Origin: a virus
Length of the DNA: 64,000 nt
Virus genome (UHGV): UHGV-1451962
Direction: 5' to 3' (one strand)
Position numbers and translations under genes: made by a program. Below are positions 27,403-49,416 of this stretch, piece by piece. Position 1 is the stretch's first letter. Each line of letters opens with the position of its first letter. The notes under the pieces are model-generated. The model searched no databases, was not told the DNA's origin, and saw only the letters and a list, made by a program, of their open reading frames with translations.

Positions 27403-28051
27403 ATTTTAATTCTATGGCTTTAATTTCCTTATAATTTTTAGCAGTATAAATTTGTGTTTTATATTGTTGCATTTTTTTATAATAAGGATAAACAAAATCA
27501 GAAATAGCTAAAGCTAAAGCAGTCAAATTTTCAACTGTCCAAGATGTACATTCTTCTTGGCGAGCATGCCATTCTAATCTAGGATTCTCTGCTCCAGCCT
27601 GAACTGCCATAGAATATTGATTCATATTTAGGCTAATTTCTGATTGATCTTCTTCTGTAACTCCATATTGCTTTCCATCAATCCAAGTCAAAGGATTATT
27701 AATGAGGAAATTAGCGAAAGCTTTTTTATTTTCTTCTTGTTTCATTTTTTGATATTCTTCTAAAGAATAGTAATATGTTAATTCATTTTTTTCATTATCA
27801 TATTTATAAAAATTAGGTTCATAATCTTCTGGAATATTACCATCAAAAGATAAGATTCTTACTGCATCAATAGAACCTGTCATATCTGAATTAGCCAAAA
27901 TGAAATGGCTATTGCAATCTGAGCCTATTACTCCTGTAGCTTCACCTTCCGAGCAAGCAATGACAATACTTGGGTTGGATTGTAATTTGATGTAGCGGAT
28001 TTCCGCAAGGATATCGACTACTATATTTTCTCTATTGATTAATAAATACAT
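27392..28051 (-). CDS. hypothetical protein, translationally coupled to the DGR reverse transcriptase
   Basis: 219-aa ORF whose start overlaps the RT stop by 1 nt; no recognisable motif. Confidence 0.4.
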   Translation of the reverse strand: MYLLINRENIVVDILAEIRYIKLQSNPSIVIACSEGEATGVIGSDCNSHFILANSDMTGSIDAVRILSFDGNIPEDYEPNFYKYDNEKNELTYYYSLEEYQKMKQEENKKAFANFLINNPLTWIDGKQYGVTEEDQSEISLNMNQYSMAVQAGAENPRLEWHARQEECTSWTVENLTALALAISDFVYPYYKKMQQYKTQIYTAKNYKEIKAIELKYEN

Positions 28052-29307
28052 TATAATATTTCAACTCCTTTAAATAATGAATGGAAATAATTATCAAGAT
28101 TTTGTATAATATAAAAAGTAGTACCTTTATTTATATGTTCTCTAAAACCTCGATATGATTCTTGAATTTCTATATCAGTTATTTTACCTTGTAGCCAAAG
28201 TTGGTGCATTTTTCTCATTTTTCTATATTGTCGCTTTATTTTCTTTTTAAATGGAGTTTGAATAATTTTATTCGTATTAGTTAAATAAAAATCCCATTTT
28301 AAATATTTAAATGGATTATGTTTATCCGAACGTCTTTTATGAGGATAATTATTTTTATCTAGTTTTATTGGACTAATTTTAATTATTTTAGTTTTTCTTT
28401 TGTTACATTTTAAATGTATTTTATTTAATTCATTTTCAATTTTATTAAGACATTCTTTTAAATAATCTTTGTCATTATGCAAAATATAAATATCGTCCAT
28501 ATAACGTCCATAATATTTTAAATGCAAATGCTCTTTTGCATAATGGTCAATTCCATTTAATGCCAATAAAGCTAATAATTGAGATGCTTGACTACCTAAA
28601 CCTAAACTTTTATGATTAAATTCATAATAAGTACAATTTTTATAAAATTGTTTAGGATAAATTATCTTATATTTTTGTTTTTTGATGATATAGTATTGTT
28701 TATTAGGAATAGGAACTGTATCTTTTGTGACTGAAAAACAAAAGGTATCAATAATATAATCAATTAATTTAAATACTCGTTTTTCTTTAATATAATGTTT
28801 TGCCATTTGCTTTAAAGAATTATGGTCTATTGAATCAAAAAATTTTTGAATATCAATTCTTAAACCATAAAAAGATTTTCCTAAACCATATGTTCTGTGC
28901 GCTGCTTGTAAATGTTTACGCACTTCTAGCAAAGCAAAATCAATTCCTTTTCCTTTTAATGTAGCACAATTATCATAAATAAATTTTGGAGTTAGTTCTG
29001 GAATAAGAACTTGCGAACATAATGTATTTTGTGCCAATCTGTCATAAATATGGCACGCTCTTATATCTCTGGGTTTGCCCCGCTCAATTATACTAAAACT
29101 GTTAAAAACTAATTGTTCATAACTGTCATTTTCTAATTGTTCTTTAAGCGTTAAGATGTTATTTAATCTATTTTCTTCAAAATTAACTGTACTATCTTTC
29201 CATCTTACGTTTCGGCAAATAGAATAAGAAGAATCATAAAAAGCGTCAAAATTACAAAAACGCTGGAAAAGATTTTCTTCTATAAAAAATTCTCCTTTTT
29301 TTATCAT
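28051..29307 (-). CDS. DGR-type reverse transcriptase
   Basis: 418 aa; RT motif 2 (GLRIDIQKFFDSIDH), DGR-type motif 4 (GLGSQASQ = GxxxSQ), catalytic YMDD (YGRYMDDIYIL); lies directly downstream of the TR in the canonical target-avd-TR-RT order. Confidence 0.85.
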   Translation of the reverse strand: MIKKGEFFIEENLFQRFCNFDAFYDSSYSICRNVRWKDSTVNFEENRLNNILTLKEQLENDSYEQLVFNSFSIIERGKPRDIRACHIYDRLAQNTLCSQVLIPELTPKFIYDNCATLKGKGIDFALLEVRKHLQAAHRTYGLGKSFYGLRIDIQKFFDSIDHNSLKQMAKHYIKEKRVFKLIDYIIDTFCFSVTKDTVPIPNKQYYIIKKQKYKIIYPKQFYKNCTYYEFNHKSLGLGSQASQLLALLALNGIDHYAKEHLHLKYYGRYMDDIYILHNDKDYLKECLNKIENELNKIHLKCNKRKTKIIKISPIKLDKNNYPHKRRSDKHNPFKYLKWDFYLTNTNKIIQTPFKKKIKRQYRKMRKMHQLWLQGKITDIEIQESYRGFREHINKGTTFYIIQNLDNYFHSLFKGVEIL

Positions 29308-29588
29308 GCGGTGCTAGATTGTGTGCTCTGACACGCACATCCGCAATCTTAATTAATTATCTGTATAGATAAAAGGTTAAATTCTCCTTAAATGAAAGCT
29401 ATCTATTATAATCTAAGTCTTTTATTTAATATTTCCTCTCCTTCTTGGTTTTAAAACCAATGCGTCCAGAAAATACCAAAATAGATGAGTTATAACATAG
29501 GTTATAATTTTCTGGGGTAACACTTAGTCGTCTCAGTCGATGTCGCCTGCGGCTCCATCACCAGAGACAGTTAGAGTTCTCATCTAAT

Positions 29589-29693
29589 CGGGCGCGAGGT
29601 AATTGTTGTTGTTGTAGTTGGTATTGTTCGCATTACCATCAGAGTTGACATTGCACACATTGTTCGTGTTGTTCGAGTTGTAGTAGCGAGACC
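29589..29693 (-). repeat. DGR template repeat (TR)
   Basis: About 105 nt, 84/105 identical to the VR; 20 of 21 differences lie at plus-strand T (adenine on the transcribed minus strand); non-coding, between the Avd-like ORF and the RT. Confidence 0.85.
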
Positions 29694-29726: not shown

Positions 29727-30191
29727 TTATTTGTATCGCTGAGAATAAATTAGATTATCTCTATTTATTCTATCAAGAAGATTTTGTTTTAATTTGTAAG
29801 TAAGTTTAGCAACATATTTGAAAGATTTATTTTTCTTTTTATTATTTAACCCATATTCATAAATACATAAATCTAATTGCCTTAAAATTGAATCACAATA
29901 TCTTATTGATTTATTAAAGTAATCTGCTCTTTCAACTAAAGTTTTTTTATTTTTTAGATTGATTAAACTAGCAGAGAAAGCATATCCATGTGCGTTTTTG
30001 GCACATTTTAAAATATCTGCACCAAAAGCTGAATAATAGTATGGATTACCAAGAATACCTGGTTTAATATGAGAACCATCATCTAATTCTTGATATGGAC
30101 GAACTAAAATTAATACTTGATGGACTAACTTTCTTGCATCATTTAAATAATCATTTTTAGATTGATGCCTATCTTTTTTTCTTACTGACAA
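29727..30191 (-). CDS. avd: Avd-like accessory variability determinant (putative)
   Basis: 154-aa basic (Lys/Arg-rich) ORF with TTG start after aaaggagg, placed between VR and TR as Avd is in known DGRs; assignment by position and composition only. Confidence 0.5.
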   Translation of the reverse strand: MSVRKKDRHQSKNDYLNDARKLVHQVLILVRPYQELDDGSHIKPGILGNPYYYSAFGADILKCAKNAHGYAFSASLINLKNKKTLVERADYFNKSIRYCDSILRQLDLCIYEYGLNNKKKNKSFKYVAKLTYKLKQNLLDRINRDNLIYSQRYK

Positions 30192-30225: not shown

Positions 30226-30254
30226 ATTATACCAGAAAATTTTTAAAAAGTCAA
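30226..30254 (-). promoter_or_regulatory. sigma70-like promoter for the avd-TR-RT transcript
   Basis: On minus strand: TTGACT, 17-nt spacer, TATAAT (exact consensus -10), preceded by an A/T-rich UP-like tract; about 35 nt upstream of the avd TTG start. Confidence 0.5.
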
Positions 30255-30315
30255 AGAAAAAAAATTTTTAGAAAAAATTTTTTTCCCAGAAAAGGTGAAA
30301 GCATTTTTATACTAT

Positions 30316-30341
30316 GGCATTGGCCCTTTTGGGCCAATGCC
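30316..30341 (-). promoter_or_regulatory. GC-rich hairpin 3' of the VR (candidate DGR target-recognition hairpin)
   Basis: Perfect 11-bp inverted repeat ggcattggccc / gggccaatgcc with 4-nt loop, about 30 nt downstream of the target-gene stop; no U-run on the minus strand, so it is not a canonical terminator. Confidence 0.5.
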
Positions 30342-30369
30342 AATATAACCTTACTGTATAACTTTACAG

Positions 30370-32154
30370 TTATCCAATAACGAAAGCGGGCGCGAGGTAA
30401 CGGTAGTTGGCGTAGTAGGTAAAGTCCGCACCACCATCAGAGTCGACACGGCACACATAGCCCGTGTAGTCCGAGTAGTAGTTGCGAGACCGCTCCCAAT
30501 ACCATTTGGAATCTCCTGAACTGTTACCATTAGCATCTTGAATGTTTTTTATACGGGAGCTGTCACTTGTGTAATAATCATAAGCAGCATTATATCCTTT
30601 AGTACATTCTGCATTGGAAACAGTAGAATTAGCAGTGCTGATTGGAGAATAACTATCTAATCCCATTTCTCTCTCAGAAGGAATCCAAACAGTTTCGTTA
30701 TTATAACTAACATTAGCACTTCTATTATCATCCCAATTATCGCAAGTACCTTTAGATACTGTTTTTATAGATGCTTTAGCAGCACAAGCATTATAAAAAT
30801 TTTGACAATAACTTCTAGCATTAGAACCAATCCATTGTGCGCTATTATCACCAAAAGTAGTCATATTCGGCAAGAGATAAACACTATGAAAAGCTAAAGT
30901 TTTATCTCCATCTTTGTCATAGCCAATACAACGCATTGTAACAGCATTTGCTCCTAAAACATTAGTAGATAAATTCATCTTTTTAGTTTTACCAACTAAA
31001 GCTTGACGTTCTGAAGCAGAAGAATTGTTAAGCCAAGACTTTAAGCCAGCCCACCAAGAAGCATCTCCCGCAGCACTCTCATTTCCCCAAGTCCAATATG
31101 TAGCAGTAGCAGTAATTTTTTTATTCGCGGGAGTTGTATAATTGGTACTGGCTGCTATTGATACAGTAATAGTAGCAGTTCCCGCGGTTGTACCATTGCC
31201 TTTAATGGTAATTGTTTTACCGCTTACTGTTGCTGAAGCCACATTAGAATTAGTAGAAGTTACAGAAATTGTACCAGTAGAATTAGTGGTCACAGTAACT
31301 TTTACACCAGTAGAATAATTAGATGCGTCAATAGAAACAGTAGAAGTGCTTAGACTTAATGTTCCTGTTGCTTTTTGAATAGACCAATCAACATTTTTCG
31401 CGGTTGTTGTCTTATCAGGCCATCTGTAATTATTTTTAGGAGTAAAAGTAGCTGTATATTTTCCTGCATTAATTCCCGATGTAGTTCCTCCAATAGTCAT
31501 GTAACTTGTATTATAATTTGACCAATTTGGACTTTGCGAATTGGCGTTATAAGTTAAAGTTCCAGTTTGAGAAGGAATAGGAACTGTTTTTCTTTCTACT
31601 GTTACAGAAAAAGTAGTAGTTTTAGTAATACTATTTTCTGTATAAGAAACAGTAATTGTTTGAGTACCAACTGTATTTAAAACAGAAGGTGAAGTTGTCC
31701 AACCAGAAACAGTAGCGGTTTTACCATCAGAATAAGTGGCAGTAACAGACATTCCGGCAGATTCAAATGTCTCGCCATATTCATAAATTGTCTTAGTTGG
31801 TTTTGTGCTTGTGATGCTGGTTAGTGCATGGATAACAGTAACTGCTTGCTCGGCGGTACAAGTAACTCCTCCTTCAGAGTAAGTAATAGTAACTTTAGTT
31901 ACTCCATCAGTTAAAGGAGAAGGTGTTACAGTATATCCAGTTACCGCAGTAGAAGAAACAACAATATTATCAATGGCATAATTGGCAGTTATAACCATTC
32001 CTGTTGTTTCAAATTCTTGTCCAGCAACGTAAGATGTACGGTTTGGTGGAGTAGTAACTTCAATAGAGTGGAGTGCTATTGAGCTTCCGCCACCTTTTCC
32101 GCCTTGTTCAGTTAAAATGCATTTAACAGGCAAGGTATAAGACCTCCTTATCAA
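30370..32154 (-). CDS. DGR target protein: Ig-like repeat protein with C-terminal lectin-fold-like variable domain
   Basis: 594-aa ORF; tandem Thr/Ser-rich Ig-like segments (e.g. GVTKVTITYSEGGVTCTAEQAVTVIH), then a C-terminal domain containing WIPSEREMGL and the VR; likely true start is the TTG at 32133 (9 nt after aaggagg) rather than 32154. Confidence 0.8.
   Translation of the reverse strand: MIRRSYTLPVKCILTEQGGKGGGSSIALHSIEVTTPPNRTSYVAGQEFETTGMVITANYAIDNIVVSSTAVTGYTVTPSPLTDGVTKVTITYSEGGVTCTAEQAVTVIHALTSITSTKPTKTIYEYGETFESAGMSVTATYSDGKTATVSGWTTSPSVLNTVGTQTITVSYTENSITKTTTFSVTVERKTVPIPSQTGTLTYNANSQSPNWSNYNTSYMTIGGTTSGINAGKYTATFTPKNNYRWPDKTTTAKNVDWSIQKATGTLSLSTSTVSIDASNYSTGVKVTVTTNSTGTISVTSTNSNVASATVSGKTITIKGNGTTAGTATITVSIAASTNYTTPANKKITATATYWTWGNESAAGDASWWAGLKSWLNNSSASERQALVGKTKKMNLSTNVLGANAVTMRCIGYDKDGDKTLAFHSVYLLPNMTTFGDNSAQWIGSNARSYCQNFYNACAAKASIKTVSKGTCDNWDDNRSANVSYNNETVWIPSEREMGLDSYSPISTANSTVSNAECTKGYNAAYDYYTSDSSRIKNIQDANGNSSGDSKWYWERSRNYYSDYTGYVCRVDSDGGADFTYYANYRYLAPAFVIG
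30387..30491 (-). repeat. DGR variable repeat (VR) at the 3' end of the target gene
   Basis: Matches the TR with substitutions almost exclusively at TR adenine positions; encodes the C-terminal ~35 residues (…YYSDYTGYVCRVDSDGGADFTYYANYRYLA…); shared GC-rich 3' boundary cgggcgcgagg. Confidence 0.85.
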
Positions 32155-32250
32155 GAATTATTATTAGAGTTTTAAAACTCCATCATTATTTATAGAATAA
32201 AGTACACCTTTTAGATTAATTGGGAACGTACTTTCCATAAAAAATGTAAA

Positions 32251-32286
32251 ATTGGGAAAAGGATATAAAAATATCCTTTTCCCAAT
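32251..32286. repeat. perfect 16-bp-arm palindrome in the divergent intergenic region
   Basis: attgggaaaaggatat-aaaa-atatccttttcccaat; flanked at 32199-32210 and 32383-32394 by a 12-bp inverted repeat (aaagtacacctt / aaggtgtacttt). Confidence 0.6.
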
Positions 32287-32424
32287 ATAAAAATATATTC
32301 TAAAAGTTTGGATATCTTATCCTTTTCATCTATACTTAAAGATTATTTTAATTAATTTTCCTTAGATTGACCAATGTTTCATAAGGTGTACTTTTTAAAC
32401 TTATATTTTGAAAGGAGTTTTTAA

Positions 32425-34170
32425 ATGGCTGTTCAATGTGTACTTGTCGGAAAAGGCAAGGATGATGTATTTACTGCTGTTTATGGCGAAACTACATTTG
32501 ATAAAGTGTTAAAAGCTTATAATGAAAATAAAGTAGTTCAAGTGATTTATCAAAATCGTATTTATTATTTAGATAATACTACTGTTGTAGATTCTCCTGA
32601 AGCATTTTCTTTTATTTCTGCTTTTAGTAATCAAAATGATGAAGCTGGTGAAATAAAGCATTATGTAATAAGTTTAATGACAGGAGATAGTTGGTCTGGG
32701 CCTTTCTTACAGAAATCTACTCCAGCAACTCACGCGAATACTCATAGTAAAAATGGTGATGATCCACTTACCCCCGCAGATATTGGAGCTATGGAATTAT
32801 CAGAAAATGTTCTTAAACAATCAAATGAAGATATTACTTCTCAAGTAGCGCAAGCTTTATTTGGGGATTTAGTTCCTTTTAGCGGTGGAACCATGACTGG
32901 TTTGTTAAATGTTCTTACTCCTGTTAGAGATAGTAATGCTACTACTAAAAAGTATGTAGATGATGCTTTGAGTGAGAAAATTGGAATGGATGGCATTGGC
33001 GATTTGCATGTATGGAAGAAGACTATAATAACAAAACAGGAGATTCCAGCAAGTTTTACTTTAGGTGATGTACACTCTGGTTCGTTTCGTTTTGTTAGTG
33101 GTGAAACTAATGTGTTGTTAGTAGGTACTCCTAAAGTTAATGAGAGTGGTGTCGTTACCTTAACAAACTCTGCGCAGTATAATTTTAATTATAATTCTTC
33201 ATCTCCTAGTATATCTGATCTGCGAGGACAGTATTGCATGTTTACCATGATAGCCGATCAATTTTCTAGTTTTACTGCCAATAAAGTTTTTTATATACCC
33301 ACTGATGCAAACTATATTTCTTTATCAAGTTCTAAAAATATTACTAAATATCAAGATGTTAATGGTACACCTAAAATTCCTGCCGAAGTAACTACTACCT
33401 ATCCCGCATCTACTAATCCCAATGCGTATCAAGAGGGGAGCGATGCAAAACCAGCAGGATATGTACTTGGTAATGTGATAACAGGTTCATTTTGTATTGG
33501 TAATACAACAGCACCTACGAGAGCTGCTTATTATGTCGCATCTGATATTTCTGTATCTGATAATGGTGTTTTATCTATTTCAACACAAACAAATATAACT
33601 ATTGGTGGTAATTTTTTTGTATCTAGCCGTGATTTAATTGCTGGTAAATTTATACAAATTTATAATAAAGGGTCTATGTCTTCTGTTTTATCTGAACCAT
33701 TCACAACAGTACCAGGCCCAATTATTTATATTCCGAATGATGTAAACTTAACGTCTGGCGGTGATGGAAATTTAAATTTATATATTGATCGCTACCAACC
33801 TATTACTGGCTACGCTGCTATCCCCGCAGGCACCACTATTGAATATCTGGGGAAGTTGGGAGATAAGACTAGGGTAATAATTGGCTCGTATATTGGGACA
33901 GGGGTCTGCGGGGCAGAGAATCCGACCAAAATAAAAACGAGTTTTTTACCGAAACTTGTAGCAATAAATGGAGTAGGAAATACCGGCAGTACGGGCATTA
34001 TTCTGTTTTTTCGAGATATGAACTATGCGTTCTCAGAAATCGGCTCAAGTACCAACTTTAACTTTACTAATATAACCTGGTTATCAGACGGAGTACATTG
34101 GTATTCTAGCAAAGTCCTTATGCAGGGGAATAAGCAGGGGGCAATTTATAAATACATTGTTATCGGTTAA
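32425..34170 (+). CDS. tail fibre protein
   Basis: 581-aa ORF with RBS (aaaggag); contains the tail-fibre motif FSGGTMTGLLNV and an HANTHSKNGDDPLTPADIGA segment; last ~110 codons are visibly GC-richer. Confidence 0.6.
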   Translation: MAVQCVLVGKGKDDVFTAVYGETTFDKVLKAYNENKVVQVIYQNRIYYLDNTTVVDSPEAFSFISAFSNQNDEAGEIKHYVISLMTGDSWSGPFLQKSTPATHANTHSKNGDDPLTPADIGAMELSENVLKQSNEDITSQVAQALFGDLVPFSGGTMTGLLNVLTPVRDSNATTKKYVDDALSEKIGMDGIGDLHVWKKTIITKQEIPASFTLGDVHSGSFRFVSGETNVLLVGTPKVNESGVVTLTNSAQYNFNYNSSSPSISDLRGQYCMFTMIADQFSSFTANKVFYIPTDANYISLSSSKNITKYQDVNGTPKIPAEVTTTYPASTNPNAYQEGSDAKPAGYVLGNVITGSFCIGNTTAPTRAAYYVASDISVSDNGVLSISTQTNITIGGNFFVSSRDLIAGKFIQIYNKGSMSSVLSEPFTTVPGPIIYIPNDVNLTSGGDGNLNLYIDRYQPITGYAAIPAGTTIEYLGKLGDKTRVIIGSYIGTGVCGAENPTKIKTSFLPKLVAINGVGNTGSTGIILFFRDMNYAFSEIGSSTNFNFTNITWLSDGVHWYSSKVLMQGNKQGAIYKYIVIG

Positions 34171-34534: not shown

Positions 34535-34668
34535 TGTTATATAGAGTTTTAAAAAGAATGATTGAAGCAGGTCAAACAGAAGGCCTGCAAGAAAAAATAG
34601 ATATTTTCTTTGCGGCTGGCCGCATTACCGCAGACCAATACACTGAACTCACTAAATTATTATCATAA
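34534..34668 (+). CDS. small XkdX-like protein (44 aa), absent from the ORF track
   Basis: ATG overlapping the previous stop (taATG); encodes MLYRVLKRMIEAGQTEGLQEKIDIFFAAGRITADQYTELTKLLS, resembling the small XkdX-family proteins found after tail-fibre genes. Confidence 0.3.
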   Translation: MLYRVLKRMIEAGQTEGLQEKIDIFFAAGRITADQYTELTKLLS

Positions 34669-34689
34669 TTCCCAAAATTTTTGGGAATT
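34667..34689. repeat. near-perfect palindrome immediately upstream of the serine recombinase gene
   Basis: aattcccaaaa-t-ttttgggaatt, overlapping the stop of the 44-aa ORF and 42 nt upstream of the recombinase GTG start. Confidence 0.5.
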
Positions 34690-34730
34690 TTAGATTAATC
34701 GTCTACTAATAATTTTCTTATATAGTAGAG

Positions 34731-35357
34731 GTGAAAAAGGTGTTATATGGTTATGCAAGAGTTTCTTCCCGCGACCAAAATATAGATAGACAAATAATTG
34801 CATTAAAAGAGGTCGGCGTAGAAGAAGAAAATATCTTCATAGATAAACAATCAGGTAAAGATTTTAATAGACCTTCTTATCAAGAATTATTAGAAACAAT
34901 TAAAACAGGAGATATGGTAATTATAAAATCCATAGATAGATTAGGTCGAAATTATTCAGAAATTTTAGAACAGTGGAGAATTATTACTAAAGTTCTGAAT
35001 GTAGATATTAAAGTTATTGATATGCCGTTACTCGATACCTCCTACGGGGATGGTACATTAAATAACTTTATAGCTGATTTAGTTTTACAAATTCTCTCTT
35101 TTCAGGCAGAACAAGAGAGAATTTGTATTAAACAGCGACAAGCAGAAGGAATAGCTGCTGCAAAACAAAAAGGAGTTAAATTTGGCCGACCCCGCAAACA
35201 GCTTCCTTCTAATTTTGAAGATTTATATTATAGATATTTAAATAATGAACCAGTGGATAGATTATCAAAAGATTGTAAAGGATTATCTAAATCTACTTTG
35301 CGGTTGCGACTACAAGAACGTCATTCTAAAGATAAAGCATTGGGTGTAATTATTTAA
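34731..35357 (+). CDS. small serine recombinase (resolvase/invertase family)
   Basis: 208 aa, GTG start after agaggtg; N-terminal catalytic motif YGYARVSSRDQ, then DRLGRN; C-terminal HTH region with GRPRK. Confidence 0.8.
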   Translation: MKKVLYGYARVSSRDQNIDRQIIALKEVGVEEENIFIDKQSGKDFNRPSYQELLETIKTGDMVIIKSIDRLGRNYSEILEQWRIITKVLNVDIKVIDMPLLDTSYGDGTLNNFIADLVLQILSFQAEQERICIKQRQAEGIAAAKQKGVKFGRPRKQLPSNFEDLYYRYLNNEPVDRLSKDCKGLSKSTLRLRLQERHSKDKALGVII

Positions 35358-45035: not shown

Positions 45036-45596
45036 TTAAAAGATTTGTCCAGCAATACGTTGCACGCTAGTTGTAAAATCTTTTCTAGTTAAATTTTTTA
45101 AAACTTCACAATTAAATTCTGAAACAAAACTTCTAAAATCTTTTTCATCTGTCTCATATCTACGGATAATTTCTTCAATATTAGGTTCTTTTTCTCTATT
45201 GAGTTGTCTTATCAATCTCTCCTTATTTGATACATCTATATAAAAAATCTTTAAAATAATATTTGGATTATCTTTCAAAATTTCTAAACCTTCTGGATTA
45301 AAAACCCCAATATTAATTTTATCTGTATCAAGAGTAGAATAAGAAGTTCCATAACACCACCCGTTAAATGAAGTAGCTTCTAGCATGTCTCCATTTAAAA
45401 GTTTAACCGCAAATTCTTCATTGGTAAGATAATGATAATCTTTTCCTTCTGTTTCATTATCTCTTTTAGGTCTAGTAGTACAAGAAATAATTGGATTTAA
45501 TTGCGGATTAAGCTTAATGGCGGAGGAAAGAATAGAATCTTTCCCCGCACCACTTTTTCCTGCAATTGCAATAATTTTAATCTTCTTCATCTTCAA
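45036..45596 (-). CDS. gmk: guanylate kinase
   Basis: 186 aa; P-loop GKSGAGKDS and signature SCTTRPKRDNETEGKDYHYLT. Confidence 0.7.
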   Translation of the reverse strand: MKMKKIKIIAIAGKSGAGKDSILSSAIKLNPQLNPIISCTTRPKRDNETEGKDYHYLTNEEFAVKLLNGDMLEATSFNGWCYGTSYSTLDTDKINIGVFNPEGLEILKDNPNIILKIFYIDVSNKERLIRQLNREKEPNIEEIIRRYETDEKDFRSFVSEFNCEVLKNLTRKDFTTSVQRIAGQIF

Positions 45597-48500
45597 TATC
45601 TCCCTGAAGTCTTGTATGTCTTAAAATTAAATCTCCATGTTCATCAATATTATCAATATGATATAATCGATGAGAAATACTAGAAGCATATTTTTTACTA
45701 ACAAATTCGTCCCCCCGACGAATACCCTGAATTAAAATCATATTACCTCTATTAAACCAACTCTTTTCAATCACTTTCTTAGTTCCATCTGATTGACGTT
45801 CAGAAATTTGTTTATCAAAAACAGCGAAATGTTCCTTTCTTAACTTTACTGGTACTACTCCAGTAGTAGTTAAAAGATAAACAATTCCTTTTGGTTTATT
45901 TTTTGCAATACAAGTTCCGCAAATTTTATGCAGTTTATAAATAGGAATTTGAATAGCACCTTTTTTGAAAAACTTTTCTACTTCTGGTTCAGCAGGTAAT
46001 TGCTCAAAATCAACAATACCATATTTGTTCTTATTAACATTAATCAATTCATGCGGATGATAATAAAAACATAAAGCTTCCATTTCCCAAGAAGATAAAT
46101 TACCAGAAGCATATTTTTCCCAATCTTTCATAAAAATACTTGTATTTAACTTATTTAAAATATTTTGTTTATCTTGATTAATCCAATTTCTAAAAACATC
46201 CATCCAAGTTTGATAAATGTTTTTATCCCAAATTTTCTTATTTAAGAAATAATTATTTTCAATCCAATGTCCATAATCCATTTCATAAATAAAATTTAAA
46301 GCTCTTTCATCAAGTTTATAATATTCATTGTCATATTTACATTCATTTTTTAAATATCTGTTAAATTCATAAATTTTTCTTGCGGTTATTTGTTCTTCTG
46401 TTTCTTCTGGCAAAATTTTATGTCTAATTAATCCTGGAAGATTCTGTAAAGTTAATCTTGATTTTTTATCACAAGTAAGCCACAAATAAGTAATCATTGT
46501 GTCATATCTAGGAGACAAATTATCAAAAGCACCGCCTTTAATCAAAGTAATCATTGCTTGTTTATTAGGTCTAACTCGATTGTAAAAATCTATCATAGAA
46601 TTATAAGGACGTTTAGCAATAATATCTTTAATTAAATCATCTCCGACATTAAGCAAACTTTTTAAACCCATCCAAATTAAATTCTGTTTTTCATCAGGAA
46701 CAAAATTATATTGTGAATTATTAATATCTACAAGAGAAATTTTAATATTTGCTTTTTGCATTTTTCCTAAAGCAGTAGCAATTTTGTTATAATCAGTGCT
46801 TCCATCTTCTCCACCTGCATCATTAATAAGACAAGCGCAATTCCAATAAACAATAGGAAATTTAAAAGCTAAATTCATTTCTTGAACAGCAATGATAGAA
46901 TAGGCAAGCGTATGAGATAGATTAAATCCATATCCTCGACTAGTTGCAATTAACACATTCCAAACATAATTACAAAGATTTTGACTTAAACTTTTTTCTT
47001 TTACTTCTGTAAAATACTTTTTAGTAAGTTCATCATATGCAGCAGGATTTTTCTTTGCAATAGCTTTTCGCAAACTATCAGCAAAAGTCAAATCAAAACC
47101 ACCGCACTCTGGAATTTGAACTAATTGCATAAATCCTTCCTGACTCTCACATATACCATAACTACCAGAAAGATATGGTTTAAGTAATTCTTGCTCTTGT
47201 TGAGTTAATCCATAGTTTTCCATTTCTTGATACCACAAATTAATATTTGCTTTAAAGCGAGCATATTTATTTAAAGGTTGTTCTCCACCTTTTTCCTGAG
47301 CCATTAATCGAATAATTGAATTTAAGTGGGCTAAATCTTCAACTGATTTAGGGTGAGTTAATGCAATGCCTTGTATTCCACTTTGTTTTTCCATTTGGAA
47401 TAAAGATTGAATTTCATGGTTATTAACCATTTTCCACATTTCAGAATCATTGCGTTCAATATTATATACACCTAAAATTTCTTCATAAGTTTCTCTTAAA
47501 GAACCTTTATCTTGAATTTTATTTGCTGCAAGTAAAAGATCGAGACAATTATGCATTTTATCCATAGCTTCAACGGATAATAGATCATACTTGATAAGAC
47601 TTACATCTTCAGCCCGATGTAGATCATAACCTGTTACTATTGTTCCATCAGGAGCACGCATTAAAGAAGCGGACTCAGTAAAAGGTTCATCCACAAAAAT
47701 AACTCCGCCTGCATGAATACCAGAACGACAAATCAAACCTTCAATTTTATGAGCTACATCCCACAATTCAGGATATTCTTTCATTTTATCAACAAAAGGT
47801 CTAATGATAGGATAACCATTTTCTTTATCACCATAATAACATTGAGATAAAGTGCGAATTAATCCTCTATCTGCGGGAATAAGAGACGCAATATATTGAG
47901 CTTCATCTACATCAATACCTAAACCTCTACAAGCTGTTAAAATAGCACTTTTAGAAGTTTCTTTACCAAAAGTGATAACATTTGCAACTCTATCTTCACC
48001 ATAAACTTCTCTTAGGTGAGAAAGAACTTGCGCTCTTTTAGATCCTTCAATATCTACATCTACATCCAAAACAGAAACTCGACTAGGGTTAAGAAATCTC
48101 CAACTAAAAGTTTGAACAGTTTCTCGCAAAGGATTAATTTGCGTTATATCTAAAAGATATAACAAAATAAAACCAACACCTGAACCACGACCTGGGCCAA
48201 CTAAACTGCCAGCCTCCCAACAGCAATCAATAATTTTTTGAAGATTTAAATAATAAGCACTCCAATGAGTTTTATTTACTATTGATGATTCCCAAGTTTT
48301 ATCCAAACAATCATTAATTGCTTCATAAGTCTTTTGATTTCTTAAAGTTTCATCTTTTTCTAATCGTTCAATAATAGCTTTAGCCAATTCTACATCACCA
48401 ATATAATCAGATTCAATAAATTCCTTCAAAAGAGGAATATCATTTACCCAATCATATAAATTACTTTTTGGATTAAAAATTTTCCAAGGCAATTGTGGAA

Positions 48501-49416
48501 TTTTTAGAGATTTCCGCAAATCATAATCTTCACATTGCGAAGCAATATAATTAATATTTTTATATGCTTCATCAAGAGAAAAATCAAAATGAGATTCAAG
48601 TTCTTCAGTAGTCATCATATAAGTTGTAGCATAAAAAGCATCAACTTCTCTCTCACCATCTTGAGAATTAAGATATGCTTTATGAATTGGTCGATCTTCT
48701 AATCGAGCATAATGTGAATCTGTAGTTACAATCCAAGGAATATTTAATTCTTTTGCAATTTTTAATAGCTGTTGATTAGCTAAGTATTGTTCATTATCTT
48801 TTTTCTCAGGTGGCTGCAATTCAATATAAAAATTACCTTCTCCAAATAATTTTACCATTGATTTACACCATTTAATAAGATGATTTTTTCTTTCTTCATC
48901 TGGATTTTCAACTAACTTTAAACATTCTGAGGACAAAAAACCACCCAAACAAGCGCTTGATGCAATAAGATGACCTTTATTATTATCAATAATATCAATT
49001 AAATCTTGATAATAAGTGGGGACTCTTCGCATTTTACCTGTTTTATAACTTCTTAACCATGCGCGAGTAGAAATTTCTCTAAGTTGTTTATGACCTTCTT
49101 TATCTTTTGCTAATAAGATAAAATGATAATAACTATCTTCTCCTGAAATAAAATTATCTTGATTTAATCCATTTCGACAAAGATAAATCTCATTACCTAA
49201 AATTAGTTTAAAATCAGGATTATCTTTTTTAATCTTTTCATAATAAGATAAGGCAGATAAATGTCCTGATAAACAATCATGGTCAGTAATAGCTAATACT
49301 TTATGCCCCAAAGAAACAGCTGTATCAATTAAATTTTCTACTTTTATGATACAATCGCGTAGACGAATATTACTGAACTCCGAGTGATTATGTACACTAC
49401 CTGGAAATTTCAACAA
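45577..49416 (-). CDS. DNA polymerase III alpha-type (DnaE-like) replicative polymerase
   Basis: 1279 aa; N-terminal PHP-domain signature (VHNHSEFS…ITDHD), size and layout typical of the DnaE family. Confidence 0.75.
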   Translation of the reverse strand: MLKFPGSVHNHSEFSNIRLRDCIIKVENLIDTAVSLGHKVLAITDHDCLSGHLSALSYYEKIKKDNPDFKLILGNEIYLCRNGLNQDNFISGEDSYYHFILLAKDKEGHKQLREISTRAWLRSYKTGKMRRVPTYYQDLIDIIDNNKGHLIASSACLGGFLSSECLKLVENPDEERKNHLIKWCKSMVKLFGEGNFYIELQPPEKKDNEQYLANQQLLKIAKELNIPWIVTTDSHYARLEDRPIHKAYLNSQDGEREVDAFYATTYMMTTEELESHFDFSLDEAYKNINYIASQCEDYDLRKSLKIPQLPWKIFNPKSNLYDWVNDIPLLKEFIESDYIGDVELAKAIIERLEKDETLRNQKTYEAINDCLDKTWESSIVNKTHWSAYYLNLQKIIDCCWEAGSLVGPGRGSGVGFILLYLLDITQINPLRETVQTFSWRFLNPSRVSVLDVDVDIEGSKRAQVLSHLREVYGEDRVANVITFGKETSKSAILTACRGLGIDVDEAQYIASLIPADRGLIRTLSQCYYGDKENGYPIIRPFVDKMKEYPELWDVAHKIEGLICRSGIHAGGVIFVDEPFTESASLMRAPDGTIVTGYDLHRAEDVSLIKYDLLSVEAMDKMHNCLDLLLAANKIQDKGSLRETYEEILGVYNIERNDSEMWKMVNNHEIQSLFQMEKQSGIQGIALTHPKSVEDLAHLNSIIRLMAQEKGGEQPLNKYARFKANINLWYQEMENYGLTQQEQELLKPYLSGSYGICESQEGFMQLVQIPECGGFDLTFADSLRKAIAKKNPAAYDELTKKYFTEVKEKSLSQNLCNYVWNVLIATSRGYGFNLSHTLAYSIIAVQEMNLAFKFPIVYWNCACLINDAGGEDGSTDYNKIATALGKMQKANIKISLVDINNSQYNFVPDEKQNLIWMGLKSLLNVGDDLIKDIIAKRPYNSMIDFYNRVRPNKQAMITLIKGGAFDNLSPRYDTMITYLWLTCDKKSRLTLQNLPGLIRHKILPEETEEQITARKIYEFNRYLKNECKYDNEYYKLDERALNFIYEMDYGHWIENNYFLNKKIWDKNIYQTWMDVFRNWINQDKQNILNKLNTSIFMKDWEKYASGNLSSWEMEALCFYYHPHELINVNKNKYGIVDFEQLPAEPEVEKFFKKGAIQIPIYKLHKICGTCIAKNKPKGIVYLLTTTGVVPVKLRKEHFAVFDKQISERQSDGTKKVIEKSWFNRGNMILIQGIRRGDEFVSKKYASSISHRLYHIDNIDEHGDLILRHTRLQGDIEDEED

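Follow-up and report, generated by a model that had tools for sequence, protein, structure and literature searches.

What do the palindrome and the flanking inverted repeat do that lie between two divergent genes of UHGV-1451962, a phage genome of about 137.5 kb from human gut metagenomes? The window, that is, the whole 64,000-nt stretch of this genome analyzed here, contains both elements at 32199-32394, between the minus-strand target gene of a diversity-generating retroelement (DGR) and a plus-strand gene encoding a 581-aa protein. An initial annotation considered three roles for them: an operator for a dimeric regulator of both genes, a minus-strand terminator, and an invertible switch, the last being called speculative. 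The switch emerges as the best-supported of the three, both orientations of the repeat-bounded unit being present in natural relatives, and the terminator reading is supported as well, as a part of the switch and not as an alternative to it. We propose, with a probability of roughly 0.6, that 32199-32394 is an inverton, a cassette of promoter and terminator that switches transcription from the DGR target to the 581-aa gene and back.

Both annotated elements are exact. The hairpin (32251-32286), ATTGGGAAAAGGATAT-AAAA-ATATCCTTTTCCCAAT, has perfect 16-bp arms and a 4-nt loop. It sits inside the segment bracketed by a perfect 12-bp inverted repeat, whose left arm (IRL) is AAAGTACACCTT (32199-32210) and whose right arm (IRR) is AAGGTGTACTTT (32383-32394); 172 nt separate the arms, and the whole repeat-to-repeat unit measures 196 bp. 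The hairpin is far beyond chance, with a fold of about -22.4 kcal/mol on both strands (z = -4.8 and -6.4) that none of 200 shuffles equaled. About 14 long perfect hairpins, this one included, are present in the window; nearly all the others are located at gene ends, with T-runs oriented along the direction of their genes. The inverted repeat by itself, as the initial annotation had conceded, is at chance level: the window has 14 perfect pairs of at least 12 bp with a spacing of 20-500 bp, and 12.4 are expected from Markov simulations. Its motif occurs in only two copies in the window, and its reality rests on comparative evidence. An imperfect third copy of IRR (AATGTGTACTTG) at 32435-32446, in codons 4-8 of the 581-aa gene, was rejected as a site; it is strain-variable (GTGTGCTT, GTATACTT) and probably just reflects Cys-Val-Leu codons.

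The comparative evidence comes first of all from a close group of contigs, found by exact-protein look-ups of homologues of the 581-aa protein, which share the gene order of the window and have a nearly identical 291-nt intergenic region. In two of them, L003 (ERZ15610146) and L101 (ERZ27289073), the repeat-to-repeat unit with its unique 172-bp part (32211-32382) is reverse-complemented and both flanks are unchanged. In an all-versus-all blastn comparison of the loci, the minus-strand match covers exactly 196 bp, from repeat to repeat, and no other inversion was seen. Two further contigs look like products of mixed populations, an indirect sign that both orientations may coexist. The fold-back contig L014 consists of the reverse-complemented right flank, the repeat, the segment, the repeat again, and the right flank, so that k-mers of both right-junction types must have been present in that one sample, and L102 has its first base precisely where IRR begins, as would result from a branch point of the assembly graph. 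Overall, about 17 close-group contigs have the window orientation, two are inverted, and two (L014 and L102) show signatures of a mixture. Natural relatives thus carry both orientations, with the boundaries inside the inverted repeat.

One could still argue that no active switch exists: the opposite orientation would be due to an assembly artefact or to a rearrangement fixed long ago, and the 12-bp repeat would match by chance. Such repeats are indeed at chance level in the window, and most contigs, including all relatives from IMG/VR, show a single orientation. However, the inversion boundaries fall precisely within the repeat in two different strain backgrounds, and L100 has the window orientation despite a 4.9-kb right flank that is 98% identical to that of L003. 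Further, there must be reads across the inverted junctions, since no assembly k-mer is as short as the 12-bp repeat; the fold-back contig requires both junction types in one sample; and the site motif, as described below, is conserved, dyad-symmetric, and invertase-linked in unrelated genomes, in one case in both orientations. These observations largely refute the absence of a switch, which we consider the least probable of the explanations weighed here.

In the distant relatives (about 30 contigs in IMG/VR, with 63-70% DNA identity over the syntenic block), the homologous unit lies between the DGR target and a plus-strand gene, 1.7-2.2 kb upstream of a gene for a DNA invertase that is 68-74% identical to the one encoded in the window. 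Its repeats, AAAAAGTACACTT(T) and the complement, are 147-151 nt apart, and the arrangement of repeat core, 147-172-nt segment, and invertase is the same in every relative. An exact search for the palindrome gave no matches in IMG/VR and none in JGI metagenome contigs, and an exact-protein look-up of the invertase returned only the same three contigs. Across 20 distinct aligned units the conserved parts are the crossover sites, a GGGAA..TACTT block at 32222-32236 (GGGAACGTACTTTCC in the window, GGAAAAATACTTC in distant relatives), the hairpin, a small palindrome with the adjoining TTTTCA (GGATA-TCT-TATCC then TTTTCA, 32310-32328), and the hexamer TTGACC. The arms of the small palindrome (32310-32322) covary, being GGATA/TATCC in the window, GGTA/TACC in L036, and GAGTA/TACTC in L026; its fold is not significant compared with shuffled sequence. 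It may serve as an accessory or enhancer site or form an RNA stem.

Which enzyme could invert this segment? The initial annotation had pointed to a serine recombinase near the switch, and the gene at 34740-35357, on the plus strand, indeed encodes a small serine recombinase (DNA invertase) of 205 aa, the proposed catalyst. The protein matches the Pfam family Resolvase at 3e-30 (residues 6-149 of 205) and phrog_125, annotated as 'DNA invertase', at 7.5e-51, and has the length of about 190-210 aa and the N-terminal serine catalytic domain characteristic of small serine invertases. Its closest solved structure is Sin/Bin3 (2r0q, 4e-36, residues 1-184 aligned), with Gin at 1e-14; the alignment with 2r0q points to a C-terminal DNA-binding domain. 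The gene starts 2.3 kb downstream of the switch and is kept together with it in all relatives, and we infer that the inversion is catalyzed by the phage's own enzyme. An Mpi-type site was considered and rejected: the motif differs, and the invertase fails the NCBIfam Mpi model NF009949 (54.7 bits, with a cut-off of 272). A larger invertible segment around the invertase was discarded too, the other long inverted repeats being only AT-rich matches of 70-87%, as was an exchange of coding segments in the manner of Mu, because only 196 bp of non-coding DNA are inverted.

The likely points of strand exchange were located by a dyad-symmetry scan of eight sites from four lineages. The summed score has a sharp peak for a 2-bp core formed by the central AC of the inverted repeat (60 versus 19-35 elsewhere), which means that each repeat is the centre of a site composed of 12 bp, AC, and another 12 bp. 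The left hix-like site, centered on IRL, would accordingly extend over approximately 32192-32217, with the predicted core AC at 32204-32205, and the right one, centered on IRR, over approximately 32376-32401, with the core GT at 32388-32389; the stretch that would physically invert, from core to core, is 32206-32387, or about 182 bp. A further perfect palindrome, AATTCCCAAAA-T-TTTTGGGAATT, is found at 34667-34689 just upstream of the invertase gene, where relatives have ATTGCCAAAATTTTGGGCAAT or TTACCAAAAAATTTGGCAA. It is similar to a crossover site lacking the GTACAC centre, and the invertase may bind there for autoregulation. A neighboring 12-mer, TTTTAGATTAAT (34688-34699), recurs at 32209-32220, right after the left crossover core.

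The same kind of site was found far beyond this phage. One genome per prokaryotic species was scanned for inverted pairs of the core with a spacing of 147-177 nt, and in 18 contigs from many taxa (L103-L120) the core is embedded in near-perfect 26-bp palindromes flanking segments of 150-180 bp. For instance, the palindromes CTGTCAAAAAGT-AC-ACCTTTTGACAG and GTCTCAAAAAGT-AC-ACTTTTTGAGAC have the A-tract-arm architecture of hix and gix. The metagenome-assembled genomes are labeled as Bacteroides, Lachnospiraceae, Oscillibacter, Selenomonadales, Erysipelotrichaceae, Phycisphaerales, and others. Homologues of the invertase (51-68% identity) are encoded within the examined stretch of half of the contigs (9/18), in seven cases only 18-190 bp from the site. 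The segment of L103 holds a perfect TTGACA-17-TATAAT, and L113 (1511-1691) and L118 (168-348) have common flanks and opposite orientations of the bacterial segment. Taken together, the scan, the linkage, and the L113/L118 pair tie the repeat to this invertase clade and indicate that the family is active; the bacterial matches look like a widespread inverton family. The site architecture is conserved and travels with the invertase clade, and the hairpin and the U-tract are conserved on one strand.

The latter observation concerns the palindrome inside the segment, annotated initially as a potential minus-strand terminator. On the minus strand, the hairpin (32286-32251) is followed by UUUACAUUUUUU (32250-32239), and the whole predicted terminator covers 32239-32286. 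The T-rich tract TTTACATTTTTT (32250-32239) follows the hairpin on this strand only, and the terminator scan calls the minus strand only. As had been asked of the palindrome, it is conserved in related phages: all relatives have the hairpin and the U-tract on this strand, and in diverged lineages the arms differ in sequence and still pair. On the plus strand, all lineages have an A-run, the hairpin, and no T-run, and the minus-strand RNA of every variant forms a 9-16-bp stem followed by AAUUUUUU. In the diverged lineages, 7-8 of the next 10 nucleotides are U on the minus strand, versus 0-3 on the other. In imperfect arms, non-canonical pairing takes the form of G·U in the minus-strand RNA, which would be A·C mismatches on the opposite strand. 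The minus strand correspondingly always folds better than the other strand, as in L109 (-19.6 versus -10.0 kcal/mol), L028 (-12.0 versus -7.2), L031 (-16.9 versus -12.3), and L100 (-22.1 versus -18.3). L022 and L109 have an extra, unrelated hairpin of the same polarity. In L018 (3777-3969) and L019 (1357-1549) the hairpin loop is TTTT instead of AAAA and one arm lacks a G, the rest being in the window orientation; this is a local loop flip, as often occurs at long palindromes.

Strand-specific G·U pairing combined with the U-tract is what characterizes an intrinsic terminator acting in one direction, as opposed to a protein operator, and we predict that the palindrome is such a terminator. An operator bound by a dimeric regulator of both divergent genes would agree with the perfect symmetry of the palindrome and its position between these genes, with the conservation of the arm core TTGGGAAAAGG in sequence and not in pairing alone, and with the presence of TTGGGAA also within the palindrome upstream of the invertase gene. 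It does not explain why the inner parts of the arms vary between lineages with pairing kept, why mismatches appear as G·U on a single strand, always the one carrying the U-tract, or why relatives differ in loop length (4 to 6 nt). The second, unrelated hairpin of the same polarity in L022 and L109 and the location of similar hairpins of this genome at gene ends also argue against an operator, which we therefore consider very improbable.

In addition to the terminator, the segment has a candidate outward promoter, P1, at 32367-32394 on the plus strand, composed of a -35 box TTGACC (32367-32372), a 16-nt spacer, and a -10 box TACTTT (32389-32394) located in IRR. The 64 kb contain just one other intergenic match to TTGAC-N15-18-TAnnnT. 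The relatives keep TTGACC at a distance of 15-16 nt from TACTTT, with TTGCCC or TTGGCC in 3 of the 20 unique sequences. This is probably an outward-facing promoter. With its -10 box inside the repeat, the promoter would re-form after inversion at the opposite end of the segment, now facing the other gene.

The hairpin could also be the terminator of a small RNA gene of about 95 nt contained within the segment and transcribed in either orientation, the inversion serving another purpose. A promoter-like TGGTCA-17-TAAAAT is indeed present on the minus strand at 32373-32345, TAnnnT is found 17 nt from TGGTCA in three lineages, the 32310-32322 palindrome covaries, and a stem followed by a terminator stem is a layout typical of small RNAs. 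However, the second terminator hairpin of L022 and L109 occupies the place of the putative -10 box, which is moreover lost in some contigs of the 69%-identity group (L028, L044, L047, and L050 have TAGCAC). In addition, nothing in Rfam comes near any gathering score, and the small stem is no more stable than shuffled sequence. We regard this explanation as improbable.

A more serious competitor to the promoter/terminator cassette dispenses with the internal promoter. The orientation of the terminator alone would then gate transcription initiated at outside promoters or reading through from the neighborhood, as in the cwpV switch of Clostridioides difficile, which has the same logic and almost the same size (195 bp, versus 196 bp here; PMC2784873). 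The terminator is the best-supported functional element of the segment, read-through could come from the gene blocks on both sides, and a promoter-like TTTAAA-16-TAGAAT abuts the left repeat on the plus strand. On the other hand, with 65 nt (left) and 30 nt (right) the fixed flanks are short, distant relatives do not conserve the promoter-like site at the left repeat, no leftward candidate exists to the right of IRR, and the conservation of TTGACC at a fixed spacing from the repeat is left unexplained. This mechanism is possible and rather doubtful; it predicts the same active gene for each orientation as the cassette with its own promoter.

The switch that we favor, the cassette with both elements, would operate as follows. 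The two crossover sites of about 26 bp each consist of an A-tract arm, GT, the core AC, AC, and a T-tract arm. The phage serine invertase would exchange strands at the AC/GT core, flipping the approximately 182 bp between the cores. The segment would carry the one-way terminator at one end and the outward promoter at the opposite end. In the window orientation, the promoter would face the 581-aa gene, switching it on, and the terminator would halt leftward transcription before the DGR target; in the inverted orientation, the promoter would face the DGR target, which would be on, and the terminator would shield the 581-aa gene. The orientation is thus likely to decide which gene is switched on, and a phage population would express one or the other of the two divergent genes, their expression being predicted to be mutually exclusive. 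As the locus lies between a large plus-strand and a large minus-strand block of genes, the terminator would also stop read-through from reaching the gene that is off.

Several observations weigh against this scheme. At least 30 contigs of distant relatives in IMG/VR all have the window orientation, and a scan of IMG/VR for the inverted-orientation junction of these relatives gave no matches; inversion may be rare or confined to the close group. The phage crossover sites are degenerate beyond the central 12-15 bp, with 6-7 dyad matches out of 12 in the window, and the invertase gene is 2.3 kb away from the switch, not adjacent to it as in the bacterial loci. The promoter itself is a weak assignment: the box TACTTT agrees with the -10 consensus at only three of six positions, and the role of TTGACC is ambiguous, because TTGAC is the reverse complement of the half-site motif GTCAA, so that it may be an accessory binding site. 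Further, phages of the SPbeta type can use their own late-gene RNA polymerase, the promoters of which would be unlike those of sigma-70, and such phage-specific promoters may lie unrecognized in the segment or its flanks. The motif DFDGD of YonO-like RNA polymerases was not found in the window. Finally, the 581-aa protein, only a putative receptor-binding protein, has no match among GenBank phages in a tblastn search, and its AlphaFold model (mean pLDDT 62) has no Foldseek match in PDB at E < 0.001.

What, then, would be switched? The left-hand gene is a true DGR target, as the initial annotation had proposed. It occupies 30370-32133 on the minus strand and encodes a 587-aa protein with a Big_3 domain, starting from TTG at 32133; the longest open reading frame (ORF) reaches 32154. 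The TTG start is preceded by the ribosome-binding site AAGGAGG, and the gene callers of public assemblies concur with it. The variable repeat (VR, 30384-30491) lies at the 3' end of the gene and differs from the template repeat (TR, 29586-29693) at 22 positions, of which 21 are TR adenines, and a reverse transcriptase is encoded at 28051-29307; enzyme, adenine-specific differences, and VR position are those of a DGR. A 154-aa ORF at 29727-30191 has the position of the DGR accessory gene avd and no family match. Directly upstream of it, at 30226-30254 on the minus strand, there is a near-consensus sigma-70 promoter, TTGACT-17-TATAAT. The DGR machinery (the 154-aa ORF, TR, and the reverse transcriptase) probably has its own transcription, unaffected by the switch that would gate the target gene. 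Just 3' of the stop codon of the target, at 30315-30342, a GC-rich perfect hairpin, TGGCATTGGCCC-TTTT-GGGCCAATGCCA, has a T-run on neither strand; it resembles the hairpin located downstream of VR in other DGRs.

The right-hand gene (32425-34170, plus strand) belongs to no assigned family. Its product had been labeled a tail fibre, a label not confirmed by the family, fold, and GenBank phage searches: the profile searches gave no family match, and no relatives of the protein were confirmed in IMG/VR. It has hundreds of metagenomic homologues, some of them with collagen repeats or a C-terminal DUF6273 domain. In otherwise near-identical phages of 135-140 kb, with a switch region 96-100% identical, the homologues share only 49-63% identity, the N-terminal part being conserved. 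The C-terminal part of the gene is thus a hotspot of strain-level variation, as expected for a receptor-binding protein, and the genomic context is consistent with a virion or receptor-binding role.

Both divergent proteins begin with the motif M-x-V-(K/Q)-C-(I/V)-L, which is kept in distant relatives (MSLKCILQGQ, MECILTG, and MIKAILQG). The N-termini are MPVKCILTEQGGKGGG (32092-32133, minus strand) and MAVQCVLVGKGKDD (32425-32466, plus strand), and in the DNA the two 5' coding ends are imperfect inverted repeats of each other. The common motif may be a shared docking peptide that brings two alternative proteins to the same attachment point. We suggest that the two proteins could be alternative receptor-binding proteins.

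The affiliation of the phage is indicated by its 1279-aa DNA polymerase (45577-49416, minus strand), the closest homologue of which is YorL of Bacillus SPbeta-type phages, with 38-39% identity over 99% of the length. One relative (L115) was binned with a Eubacterium genome. These data suggest an uncultured phage near the SPbeta-type lineage with a host from the Bacillota. A blastn search of the locus against GenBank phages gave a single weak, irrelevant match. In the distant relatives L020-L051 and L109 (e.g., L036:3900-4000 and L026:5953-6366), ORFs are interrupted by in-frame TAG codons when read in the standard code. One such TAG is aligned with a Gln of the window target protein (KCILTEQGG), and the window phage reads cleanly in code 11; the phages L020-L051 and L109 probably read TAG as an amino acid.

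In the literature searched, no known system combines an approximately 190-bp serine-invertase cassette, consisting of a terminator and a probable promoter, with divergent phage genes and a DGR target. Likewise, nothing that we found there describes a promoter or terminator inverton encoded by a phage and located between receptor-binding genes, an inversion switch upstream of a DGR target, or a class of 150-180-bp invertons with the site (C)TGTCAAAAAGT-AC-ACYTTTTGACA(G); a 2026 paper only suggests 'potential viral invertons' elsewhere. We tentatively propose, as a possibility somewhat short of even odds, that a lytic-type or SPbeta-like gut phage stacks an inverton choosing between two complete receptor-binding genes on top of a DGR hypermutating one of them, and that this site together with the invertase clade defines a class of 150-180-bp invertons that is widespread among Bacillota, Bacteroidota, and their phages. 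The site motif is directly searchable and already finds invertons beside related invertases in many gut bacteria. If the proposal is true, the phage population would hedge between a fixed and an evolvable specificity, with a second, regulatory layer above DGR tropism switching. The locus would also be a natural example of a one-way terminator flipped by a recombinase, and a warning that metagenomic phage assemblies conceal orientation variants.

Among known systems, the cwpV (Cdi1) switch of C. difficile, inverted by RecV, is the nearest in design, with a 195-bp inversion, a promoter outside the inverted segment, and a terminator present only in the OFF transcript (PMC2784873). Common to both are a non-coding segment of about 195 bp, short inverted repeats, an orientation-dependent intrinsic terminator, and a low-GC Gram-positive setting. 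The differences are that RecV is a tyrosine recombinase and the cwpV switch controls one gene from an external promoter, whereas here a serine invertase would act at hix-like sites, and the system is phage-encoded, lies between two divergent genes, and probably has its own promoter. The Mpi promoters of Bacteroides are similar in being segments of about 170-230 bp flipped by a serine recombinase. Their repeat motif is different, the family model does not recognize the phage enzyme, and Mpi acts on many chromosomal loci, whereas here a single phage locus would be affected. In the synthetic 'transcriptor', as proposed here, a one-way terminator between inverted serine-recombinase sites gates the flow of RNA polymerase; that device is engineered and uses large serine integrases, whereas this one would be natural and served by a small invertase. 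The DGR of Bordetella phage BPP-1 diversifies Mtd in tropism switching and, like the DGR described here, is a phage system that varies the C-terminal region of a protein presumed to bind the receptor; here, the expression of the DGR target itself appears to be gated by an inverton.

With the Hin (Salmonella H segment), Gin (Mu G segment), and Cin (P1 C segment) systems the locus shares a small serine invertase and crossover sites, each about 26 bp long, in which A-tract arms surround an asymmetric core of 2 bp (compare hix, TTATCAAAAACC-xx, with (C)TGTCAAAAAGT-AC here), although the enzyme is nearer to Sin/Bin3 than to Gin. In Mu (Gin) and P1 (Cin), inversion of 3-4 kb of coding DNA chooses between alternative tail-fibre specificities by swapping the C-terminal parts of fibre genes, and Hin inverts about 1 kb including its own gene, whereas here about 182 bp of non-coding DNA would flip and the choice would be transcriptional, between two complete genes. 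Host-range switching by inversion in Mu and P1 is textbook knowledge, achieved by a swap of coding segments, and short invertible promoters are a bacterial device of phase variation, often used in anti-phage defence. Here, a phage appears to use this bacterial-style device to pick which of two candidate receptor-binding genes is transcribed.

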